Shown piece by piece: positions 5,043 through 12,295 of a stretch of DNA of 56,538 nt. The number at the start of each line of letters is the position of its first letter. The stretch's first letter is position 1. This DNA comes from Candidatus Niyogibacteria bacterium RIFCSPLOWO2_12_FULL_41_13. Lineage in GTDB: Bacteria; Patescibacteriota; Minisyncoccia; 2-12-FULL-41-13. Below the pieces are notes generated by a model, which did no database searches, was not told the origin of the DNA, and was given only the letters and a program-made list of their open reading frames with translations. The DNA lies in the NCBI GenBank assembly GCA_001821615.1, contig MHMS01000006.1, forward strand, positions 1 to 56,538, read 5' to 3'. A program made the position numbers and the translations under genes.

Positions 5043-5107
5043 CCCCGTTAGAAGTCCGATGCGCTCCCGCATTAATAGTCGCCTTGGGCGACTTACTTCT
5101 AACGGGG
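5043..5107 (-). mobile_element. 65-bp miniature TIR element (CCCCGTTAGA family)
   Basis: 13-bp perfect TIR CCCCGTTAGAAGT (5043-5055) / ACTTCTAACGGGG (5095-5107). Flanks are TTCA (5039-5042) and TTCG (5108-5111). Confidence 0.7.
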
Positions 5108-10747: not shown

Positions 10748-11594
10748 AAATTTTGTACGCCAAGTAAAAAAAGAATCCTGCGATTAAAATACCCCACAAA
10801 AGATCGGGAATGCTCGCGGTTAATTTTAGCAAATTTTGAGTTTCTTGGTTCAGCGTTTCACCTATTTTCGCTTGAAATAAAGGCGACCAGTAAGTATTCC
10901 CGGAAAACGCCATAATCAAAAGAATAATCCCCACAGTCAGAAACACGAAAGCGGCGAATAAATTTGTTGAATGAACAAATAAAGTTTTTACGCCTATTTT
11001 GAACTCAAATATCTTTCCTTTAATGAATCTTGAATTTTCAATCTGAAACTTGTCGTAGAAATAGCCGGCAATAAACAGAGGAAAGGTCATTCCAAACACA
11101 TAGGCAAAAATCACGATGAGCGCTTTAGAGAACGCTCCCGAAAGGACAGCAAGGGTCATGGCGCCGGCAAGCACGGGAGCGCAACAAGAAGTGGCCGCTC
11201 CCGAGAAAACCCCGAGAAGAAAAACTGATTTTGAATCAGAGGCGTCTATTTTTAACGCCGTTCTTCCGGCCATTGGAATAATGGAAAAGCTCTTGCCTAA
11301 AATTGACATTGCAGCAAGGAAAATCATAAACATTCCGCCGAATATATACAGTTCTTGGTGAAAACTTTGGAATACTTTTGCAAGCCACGCCGCTCCCAGG
11401 CCGATAGGAATAAGGATTGCCGATATGCCGGCAAAAAAGACAAATGTCATTTTTAAAATGCCGGCTTTTTTCTTAAATACCGAAGCCATATAAGCCGGCA
11501 GAAGAATGGTGATGCAACAAGGCGCGAAAAGAGCGACCATACCGGCAAAGAATGAAGCGATTATTGAAGCTGAAAATATAATATTTGCGTCCAT
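10731..11594 (-). CDS. CcdA/DsbD-family thiol:disulfide transmembrane protein
   Basis: 287 aa, polytopic, with paired Cys motifs in TM helices (FAPCCITILLP, SCCAPVLAGA). Confidence 0.6.
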   Translation of the reverse strand: MDANIIFSASIIASFFAGMVALFAPCCITILLPAYMASVFKKKAGILKMTFVFFAGISAILIPIGLGAAWLAKVFQSFHQELYIFGGMFMIFLAAMSILGKSFSIIPMAGRTALKIDASDSKSVFLLGVFSGAATSCCAPVLAGAMTLAVLSGAFSKALIVIFAYVFGMTFPLFIAGYFYDKFQIENSRFIKGKIFEFKIGVKTLFVHSTNLFAAFVFLTVGIILLIMAFSGNTYWSPLFQAKIGETLNQETQNLLKLTASIPDLLWGILIAGFFFYLAYKIYGKRN

Positions 11595-11611: not shown

Positions 11612-12151
11612 TTATTTTGTCACCATCGCGCTGATTTCCAATTCAATTTTCGGCGTTTTTTCTGAATTAGTTTCAATATAAATGGTTCTTTTTGCCAATC
11701 CCACTCCCGAAGGCCCATGAGCCGCAGGGTCAAATTCCGCTTTTACTTCCACTGACTCGTTTGGCTTTATTTCTATATTTGCGATTGGCGAACCGCCGCC
11801 ATGCCCGGGCATTCCGAATGGTCCGTATTTTTTTCCGGAAGCGTCAATAATCAAAGCGCTTGTGCACATGCAGGAGGTGTAGATTTTTTTGATTGAAACC
11901 GCGCTTTCGCTTTCATTTTTAATTTTAAACGCGTGAGAAACATTTCCCTTACTCATTGAGATTGTTCCGAAATCAAAATTTTTTTCTTCCGCGATAAGAA
12001 TTCCGTTCGCGTCGGGAATTTTTTCAGCCCTTTGGCTATCTTGCGGATTAAGATTGGCAAATAAAATAATCGCGCCAACCGCAAGAACGGCTATAATTCC
12101 GATAATAATGTTTTTTGATTGATTCACCCCGTTAGAAATTTGTGCGTTCAT
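11612..12151 (-). CDS. DUF1573-like secreted protein
   Basis: FDFGTISMSKGNVSHAFKIKNESE...IKKIYTSCMCTSA matches the DUF1573 pattern. The current ATG (12149-12151) lies inside a mobile element. The track start at 12181 reads through element sequence. Confidence 0.65.
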   Translation of the reverse strand: MNAQISNGVNQSKNIIIGIIAVLAVGAIILFANLNPQDSQRAEKIPDANGILIAEEKNFDFGTISMSKGNVSHAFKIKNESESAVSIKKIYTSCMCTSALIIDASGKKYGPFGMPGHGGGSPIANIEIKPNESVEVKAEFDPAAHGPSGVGLAKRTIYIETNSEKTPKIELEISAMVTK

Positions 12152-12210
12152 AGTTAAATTGATTATTATGATGCGCCCCATTAGATAAATTGATTAAATT
12201 TCTAACGGGG
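12127..12210 (-). mobile_element. 84-bp miniature TIR element (CCCCGTTAGA family)
   Basis: 15-bp perfect TIR CCCCGTTAGAAATTT (12127-12141) / AAATTTCTAACGGGG (12196-12210). 4-bp direct flank repeat TTCA (12123-12126, 12211-12214). Confidence 0.8.
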
Positions 12211-12240
12211 TTCATGGAATTTTAATATTGAATGAAATAA

Positions 12241-12265
12241 ACAAAAAATCCCCCAAAAGGGATTT
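12241..12265 (-). terminator. rho-independent terminator
   Basis: AAATCCC-ccaaaa-GGGATTT. The minus strand is followed by TTTTTTG. Confidence 0.65.
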
Positions 12266-12295
12266 CAAAGGCGCTTTTATATAAGTTTCGTCCGA

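Follow-up and report, generated by a model that had tools for sequence, protein, structure and literature searches.

Small bacterial repeats with mobile or palindromic character form the background to the element described here, an 84-bp insertion at the start of a DUF1573-family gene in Candidatus Niyogibacteria bacterium RIFCSPLOWO2_12_FULL_41_13 (assembly GCA_001821615.1, contig MHMS01000006.1). Correia/NEMIS elements of Neisseria are miniature inverted-repeat transposable elements (MITEs) without a transposase gene, which duplicate their TA target, occur in many copies and sit near genes, where they can supply promoters to their neighbours and form hairpins in mRNA; we know of no autonomous partner identified for them, and of no case of start-codon rebuilding or of an oriented in-frame ATG. 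Rickettsia palindromic elements (RPEs), which are longer than the elements of the present family, reportedly survive as mobile palindromic in-frame inserts in protein-coding genes, and to our knowledge they have neither a linked nuclease gene nor a habit of docking on start codons. The hairpin repeats of the REP/BIME type, with their RAYT (Y1) proteins, and of the IS200/IS605 type are spread by a small hairpin-recognising HUH/Y1 nuclease without target duplication. Mycobacterial MIRUs are small repeats at gene junctions, with short open reading frames (ORFs) that overlap the adjacent genes at their stop and start codons and preserve translational coupling; they are direct tandem repeats, with no inverted termini, target duplications or nuclease partner.

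The closest published system is the Ssn family, represented by SsnA of Neisseria meningitidis, which comprises single-domain GIY-YIG nucleases specific for single-stranded DNA, their genes flanked by NTS/SRM hairpin repeats (Chenal et al. 2025, PMC11893778). Its authors remark that the layout resembles an insertion sequence, and present Ssn as domesticated, a modulator of transformation rather than a transposon; their paper contains no report of target duplications and no mention of start codons (PMC11893778).

We consider it probable that the 84-bp element is a MITE of a widespread family, whose start-docked copies act as replacement start modules keeping the host gene alive. The design is a recurrent one within the family rather than a one-off accident. 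Of the features by which MITEs are recognised, four are found: terminal inverted repeats (TIRs), a duplication of fixed length, dispersed copies too small for a transposase (about 18, of 61-140 bp, on 11 contigs) and a gene-bearing element with the same termini. As regards empty orthologous sites, orthologues at 39-57% identity lack the element, and the 12 near-identical public contigs fetched all carry it. The 562-kb genome of this groundwater bacterium is assembled into 26 contigs; the window corresponds to contig C6 at its full length of 56,538 nucleotides, other contigs are labelled C7, C8, C13 and so on, and loci in other genomes or assemblies carry an L and a number (e.g. L083).

The 84-bp element and its family

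The initial annotation had described perfect 15-bp TIRs, a length of 84 bp and TTCA on both flanks, each of which was found again in the sequence (Table 1). The arm at 12127-12141 (CCCCGTTAGAAATTT) is perfectly complementary to that at 12196-12210 over 15 nt, or 16 nt if the adjoining A/T is included, and the 15-mer occurs twice in the whole window, as these two arms. On the minus strand the locus reads ...TTCC ATGAA, then 84 bp, then TGAA TCAATC.... Deleting the element together with one repeat gives ...TTCCATGAATCAATCAAAAAAC, or M N Q S K N in the DUF1573 frame; the start of the empty site, ATGAATCAA (MNQSK), is ATG AAT CAA TCA AAA AAC, as had been proposed, and the orphaned ATG does open a 27-codon element ORF with its TAA inside the gene-proximal arm. 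The element is predicted to fold into a 16-bp stem (-26.4 kcal/mol, z = -4.5), and it has no match at E <= 1 among the Rfam covariance models. Its internal third terminus-like motif recurs in the layouts of L087, L097, L111 and L113.

Table 1. Features of the window around the DUF1573 gene, with two further copies of the element family
Feature	Position	Strand	Basis or remark
Non-autonomous element (MITE), CCCCGTTAGA family	12127..12210	- (relative to host gene)	Inverted repeat, copy census, other genomes
TIR, gene-distal arm (5' arm on gene strand), CCCCGTTAGAAATTT	12196..12210		Perfect complement of other arm
TIR, gene-proximal arm, gene strand reads AAATTTCTAACGGGG	12127..12141		Encodes ..ISNG in host frame
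Target-site duplication, upstream copy, TGAA on gene strand (TTCA forward)	12211..12214	-	
Target-site duplication, downstream copy, TGAA on gene strand (TTCA forward)	12123..12126	-	
Orphaned ancestral ATG of DUF1573 gene	12213..12215	-	Empty-site reconstruction; orthologues start at aligned position
27-codon ORF from orphaned ATG (MNPVRNLINLSNGAHHNNQFNYERTNF)	12132..12215	-	Stop TAA 12134-12132, in gene-proximal arm
Regenerated GTG, element's last G (12127) plus duplicated TG (12126-12125)	12125..12127	-	Exactly at old ATG position
In-element ATG in host frame (MNAQISNGV-NQSKN...)	12149..12151	-	No stop before GTG
Second in-frame ATG, farther upstream (MGRIIIINLT...)	12179..12181	-	
-10-like AT-rich box CATAATAAT, 10-13 nt upstream of in-element ATG	12162..12170	-	Consensus match only
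Internal third terminus-like motif CCCCATTAGA	12176..12185		Can pair locally with gene-distal arm
Host gene, DUF1573-family membrane-anchored protein, 171 codons from GTG	11612..12127	-	Pfam PF07610, E = 5e-14
Terminator-like hairpin and T-run after upstream gene	12245..12266	-	
Gene-bearing relative, 280 bp, termini TCCCGTTAGAG...CTCTAACGGGA	44078..44357	-	Encodes only GIY-YIG nuclease
Another family copy, 65 bp, double-hairpin type	5043..5107		On stop codon of 151-aa ORF (minus strand)

A search of the genome for the 10-nt terminal core, paired in inverted orientation, returned about 18 inverted pairs of 61-280 bp on 11 contigs. Their interiors vary widely, from G+C-rich double hairpins to A+T-rich sequence, and almost every copy stands between 4-bp direct repeats (TTCA/TGAA, TAAA/TTTA, TCAA, CGAG or TTAG). 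Once the empty sites are rebuilt, 7 of the 18 copies are seen to sit on A↓TGAA gene starts, with the duplication beginning one base after the A of ATG (arrow); several others occupy a stop codon. Among the docked hosts are the genes for NAD-dependent DNA ligase (ligA), yidD, a D-Ala-D-Ala carboxypeptidase and a glycosyltransferase. With the rebuilt genome as background, 183 of 25,675 TRAR sites fall on gene starts, or 183 of the 4,277 that do not disrupt a gene, so that the number of start-docked copies lies far above expectation (p = 3e-11 against all sites, p = 5e-6 against tolerated ones). A native, non-mobile regulatory hairpin or a chance palindrome, which would have nothing in its favour beyond the hairpin itself, is refuted by this census and is further contradicted by the duplications, the cross-phylum copies and the element-free orthologues; its probability is negligible. 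The chance palindrome had been rejected also on the confinement of the 15-mer to the two arms in the window.

The family extends well beyond this genome. An exact pattern of the terminus pair CCCCGTTAGA...TCTAACGGGG (the core also being written CCCGTTAGA), with its ends 57-87 bp apart, was scanned against one genome per species and found in at least 120 stretches, from many lineages of Patescibacteria and from Planctomycetota, Omnitrophota, Desulfobacterota, Nitrospirota and Gammaproteobacteria. The counts that follow rest on 124 copies among the matches listed. A perfect 4-bp duplication flanks 61 of them, and 71 clean sites give the target consensus R↓T-V-A-A. The base at -1 is preferentially G, strongly so, in the TAAA class (16 G vs 6 A) and the TCAA class (11 G vs 1 A); the TGAA class consists of 12 ATGAA and 1 GTGAA, which indicates that TGAA insertions persist almost only on ATG start codons. 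In 18 copies a regenerated GTG is followed by at least 60 open codons, and in 11 of these 18 the duplication is also perfect and the ancestral codon ATG or GTG. The length equals 2 modulo 3 in 78 copies (chi-square p = 1e-11), such that the element and its 4-bp duplication together add whole codons, and this holds for all 33 elements flanked on each side by 40 or more codons of open frame. These in-frame copies encode a translated [N/D]PVR...SNG[V/A] insert. Reading of the translated sequences identified SecA, DnaE, CarB, a Mur ligase and HypE as hosts (L051, L073, L140, L141 and L029), beside 28 further loci. The family is widespread and apparently undescribed.

Orthologues of the DUF1573 gene were found in 12 of 40 other genomes of the class searched, in conserved gene order, flanked by the genes for a small membrane protein (upstream) and a DsbD_TM protein (downstream). 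They are 33-57% identical to the host protein, and no element sits on any of their starts. They begin at the aligned position (MQQNKNIVVG, MTQQKAVIIG, MKQPILYVLG), with ATGAAT as the start sequence in three (L015, L021, L022) and ATGAAA in one. A core-like match upstream of one orthologue (genome G027, L012) proved to be a single half-site with one mismatch, not an element. The annotation's view of a genuine transposition into ATGAA would sit badly with element-free orthologues that begin otherwise, or with the same 84 bp at the orthologous site in distant relatives; neither was seen, because the orthologues start at the aligned position and without the element. That view is further borne out by the copies with their duplications in this genome, by those in other genomes and by the gene-bearing relative described below.

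Could the insertion have silenced the DUF1573 gene and left a decaying pseudogene? Its canonical ATG is cut off from the ORF, and no Shine-Dalgarno motif precedes either of the new starts. The 171-codon frame is, however, intact and, over its entire length, about 50% identical to the orthologues, ligA and yidD tolerate the same docking, and docked copies systematically supply in-frame starts, as detailed below; we regard decay as very improbable. The terminator-like hairpin that follows the upstream gene (Table 1) implies separate start signals for the DUF1573 gene, immediately ahead of the old ATG.

Some further copies and variants are recorded as observations in their own right. At the 65-bp copy in the window the upstream repeat now reads CGAA, and for this reason the 151-aa ORF continues into the terminus for two codons, up to the TAG there (CCC CGT TAG). 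The copy at C16:6643-6752 (L002, about 1408-1517) is the sole other one with the AAATTT sub-terminal sequence; it lacks a clean duplication, and within it lies a complete tRNA-Ala(CGC) gene that has a G3:U70 pair, followed by tRNA 3'-half-like fragments (GAGTTCGATTCTC...TCCA), so the tRNA may be cargo or the locus a scrambled integration site. In one aquifer assembly (L178), a 63-nt in-frame deletion lies in the DsbD_TM gene about 1.0 kb downstream of the old ATG (window ~11140-11200), between 9-bp direct repeats (TCGGGAGCG), and removes a segment with an SCC motif. Population variation and an artefact of assembly are both conceivable as its origin; as a direct-repeat deletion it is unrelated to the elements, and was rejected as an effect of theirs.

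The gene-bearing form and its GIY-YIG nuclease

The 280-bp relative in the same window encodes an 86-residue GIY-YIG domain (PF01541, E = 1.5e-18). The nuclease frame extends upstream through the terminus to the orphaned ATG of the host (MSPVRDPNL-MYCTYVIES...) and ends in a TGA that overlaps the ATG regenerated for the host gene, which encodes the carboxypeptidase. The sub-terminal sequence of this copy matches that of the short copies at C25:6432 and C8:23329. Homologues of the nuclease, a single-domain GIY-YIG protein of 86-95 residues, are found in 144 of 201 sampled genomes of the class. Among the 30 loci of other genomes with the closest homologues, 24 are elements of 270-284 bp with termini [C/T]CCCGTTAGAG...CTCTAACGGG[G/A]. 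Of those 24, at least 11 have ATGAA or ATGAG as their docking site; in these the nuclease ORF runs on from the host ATG, and its TGA overlaps the rebuilt start. Because the closest nuclease loci share termini and mode of docking in this way, the short elements are best understood as derivatives of a minimal, nuclease-only element. The nearest solved structure to the nuclease is the UPF0213 protein 1ZG2, and NCBIfam gives a weak, sub-threshold match only.

What could be the enzyme that mobilises the family? Judged from its position between the termini, the nuclease is the likely candidate. Alternatively, it may be a passenger or a homing-type selfish gene, with the termini moved in trans by, for example, a Y1 protein or the enzyme of another replicon. 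Such a passenger would fit with the two Y1_Tnp (IS200/RAYT-like) genes of the genome, which encode 224-231 residues (C25:2522-3193 and C14:34336-35028), with the lack of a left-hand duplication in some gene-bearing copies, and with the literature searched, where we found no demonstration of a GIY-YIG transposase. We nevertheless consider it unlikely. No family termini were found within 1.5 kb of either Y1_Tnp gene, Y1/HUH transposition is established to leave no target duplication, and neither rve nor DDE_Tnp_1 genes were found in the genome; a conventional transposase as mover was rejected on the same observations. The termini, moreover, accompany the nuclease gene at the 24 loci mentioned above, and 280 bp leaves room for nothing else. 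Mobilisation by the nuclease thus remains the preferred reading.

Three further GIY-YIG genes with different inverted termini lie at C7:2561-2806, C16:1056-1223 and C23:15592-15789, all on the 5' ends of genes. The first two have the termini CCCAGTAAGACAAAATCGAAT and a TATG duplication (C7:2567 TATG), the C16 copy being decayed and on the start of rpmH. The third, with the termini CCCTCACCTAGAAAACTTT, has inserted at a tRNA gene's 5' end, which it rebuilds. At C13:3294-3433, a 140-bp copy with the variant termini CCCCGTCAGACAAAATG adjoins, on its right flank, a terminus of the CCCAGTAAGACAAAATCGAAT family, the two families being adjacent or nested.

The start codon of the host gene

Which start serves the DUF1573 gene today? 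The initial annotation held that the gene can restart only from an ATG within the element. In-frame ATGs are indeed present at 12151 and 12181, used by public gene callers on 24 and 22 contigs respectively, and the N-terminal peptide predicted for the in-element start is MNAQISNGVNQSK. The word "only" was too strong, because the G of the element and the duplicated TG form a GTG at the old start. The same regenerated GTG is present in all six gene-less start-docked copies of the genome. GTG is rare among the starts of this genome (16 of 435 crude starts), so the six element-made codons may be a sizeable share of all its GTG starts. Few of the same 435 starts (54) have a Shine-Dalgarno motif, and the distribution of -10-like boxes has its peak at -12 from the start codon, which suggests that many mRNAs of this genome may be leaderless.

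We observe a marked polarity in the docked copies. An in-frame ATG without a stop before the GTG or host frame is found in 15 of 19 docked copies, vs 31 of 261 non-docked orientations (p = 5e-10), and at the opposite end of the same docked copies in just 1 of 19 (p = 3e-6). Neither of the other frames yields a single case in 19, and shuffling of the interiors gives a mean of 3.2 and a maximum of 9. The in-frame ATG is preceded, at a distance of 4-12 nt, by a -10-like box in 8 of the 19 docked copies vs 3 of the 261 non-docked orientations; L083 and L095 carry the promoter-like pairs TTGAC/TG...TATTAA/TTAAAT before the ATG, and L097 and L112 a Shine-Dalgarno-like AGGAG(G). From this polarity and these upstream sequences it follows that docked copies are oriented, with the start module facing the host gene.

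The same mobile element could also be tolerated if translation began at the GTG alone: ribosomes on the orphan ORF would melt the hairpin, terminate at its TAA and reinitiate, leaving the protein unchanged. The GTG lies exactly at the old start, and here the orphan ORF is open across the whole element, its TAA beginning 7 nt before the first base of the GTG. In a genome poor in Shine-Dalgarno motifs, with a -10 peak of the leaderless type, a 5'-terminal AUG would load ribosomes; the gene-bearing copies use an ATGA stop/start overlap; and at the yidD copy the GTG has to serve, because an in-frame stop lies six codons upstream of it. The orphan ORF, however, reads through to the junction in 6 of 16 docked copies, a proportion not above that in controls, and its coupling to the host gene was accordingly rejected as a general rule. 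Use of the GTG alone also leaves the strong, oriented enrichment of in-frame ATGs unexplained, and the last pair of the predicted stem includes the G of this codon: in whole-element transcripts the mean unpaired probability is 0.26-0.28 around the GTG, against 0.51 at ATG 12151 and 0.67 at ATG 12181. We therefore hold exclusive use of the GTG to be rather doubtful. Because of the comparative evidence, initiation at the in-element ATG, with a 9-residue extension (MNAQISNGV-), appears somewhat more likely than an unchanged protein starting with GTG; the earlier suggestion that the gene now starts inside the element is thus supported, not proven. The GTG is a serious alternative, and both starts may be used.

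The hairpin between identical 4-nt repeats invites comparison with T4 gene 60 and the mitochondrial byp elements, in that the 88 nt might be removed by RNA excision at the hairpin base, or skipped by ribosomes hopping between the UGAA repeats, to restore AUG-AAU. The likeness goes no further than a stable hairpin in such a setting. No evidence points to either process, Rfam offers no match, and the polarity of in-frame ATGs and the regenerated start already explain the survival of the gene; we give this idea hardly any credence.

Replacement of the start by the docked element remains the best explanation, and its steps can be laid out as follows. The family inserts with a 4-bp duplication at R↓T-V-A-A, here at A↓TGAA on the DUF1573 gene start, probably mobilised by the single-domain GIY-YIG nuclease of 86-95 residues, the one gene for which the ~280-bp form has room. 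The last base of the element and the duplication rebuild a start codon at the old position, GTG here and ATG in most gene-bearing copies, and the gene-proximal part carries an in-frame ATG a few codons upstream, often preceded by a -10-like or Shine-Dalgarno-like stretch. Since docked copies would thus act as replacement start modules, the DUF1573 protein would still be made, with its N-terminal extension or unchanged from the GTG.

Several points weigh against this explanation. The p-values overstate independence, because copies within one sub-lineage share descent. The left-hand duplication is absent from the gene-bearing copies L148, L161 and L163, and the 4-bp duplication would still need explaining from the action of a single-domain GIY-YIG nuclease. 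The -10-like box of the 84-bp copy stands 10-13 nt from its ATG, vs 6 nt in typical leaderless genes of this genome, and a promoter scan of the locus returned no consensus promoter on the gene strand. Expression of the gene, its transcription starts and the start codon in use are all inferred from the DNA. Lastly, no empty-site allele was found in near-identical DNA. Element-bearing forms of the protein occur on 46 contigs of aquifer assemblies, and the 12 public contigs fetched all carry the identical element and are identical over 1.5-1.8 kb; an exact-protein look-up found the 171-residue ATG form not on record; and a search of metagenomes for an empty site in a near-identical strain gave as its best match the closest element-free orthologue, at 57% identity. 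With the element in every near-identical contig fetched and the nearest orthologue that lacks it so distant, the case for recent mobility is an indirect one.

Comparison with known systems

If the explanation holds, bacterial genomes among the smallest and most densely packed with genes would offer an example of how selfish DNA maintains itself: it lands on start codons, on stop codons or in frame, and brings its own replacement start; the essential ligA gene tolerates the element. It would also link single-domain, Ssn-like GIY-YIG nucleases to the behaviour of transposons, with duplications, an R↓TVAA target and non-autonomous derivatives. More tentatively, as a possibility that we do not favour outright, the ~280-bp elements may constitute a new class of autonomous DNA transposons with a GIY-YIG transposase of 86-95 residues. 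They would have spread across phyla with their 10-nt termini intact, and would persist in streamlined genomes as harmless in-frame inserts, or as start replacements that take over the initiation signals of the host gene and return a start and sometimes a promoter. In that reading the preference for starts might itself be mechanistic, if a nuclease specific for single-stranded DNA acted on the melted promoter bubble over the ATG of leaderless genes. The 280-bp form may then be the smallest autonomous mobile element. Many GTG starts and N-terminal extensions (MNPVR..., ...SNGV) in Patescibacteria, and also in Planctomycetota, which share these termini, may be element-made.

Our literature searches found no description of such an element. 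Nothing relevant was returned on a GIY-YIG element with inverted repeats and duplications, on MITEs in Patescibacteria, or on a link between RPEs and GIY-YIG nucleases. The SRM/NTS motif of the Ssn system (HGTCWY...RNCYNB) has 3 matches in the genome where about 1 is expected, none of them near any element or GIY-YIG gene.

How, then, does the family compare with the systems introduced above? With REP/RAYT it shares hairpin-forming repeats scattered through the genome. Unlike in REP/RAYT or IS200/IS605, 4-bp duplications are the rule and the Y1 genes are unassociated with the family termini, and mobilisation of the Y1/RAYT type is unlikely. The family differs from Correia/NEMIS elements in its termini, in its 4-bp duplication and in docking precisely on start codons. 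Like RPEs, other members of the family are translated in frame inside SecA, DnaE, CarB, Mur ligase and HypE, whereas the 84-bp copy is not an in-frame coding insert (84 + 4 = 88 nt). MIRUs are likewise small repeats at gene junctions with ORFs that overlap stop and start codons. Correia elements, RPEs and MIRUs would each appear to share one trait with the family (outward promoters, in-frame inserts and junction ORFs, respectively), and none the whole design. The resemblance to Ssn extends to a single-domain GIY-YIG protein of some 90-100 residues, to a gene bracketed by inverted-repeat DNA and to the presence of the repeat in many gene-less copies; each flank of an Ssn gene is a separate hairpin of 20-50 nt, whereas the termini described here pair with each other around the gene.

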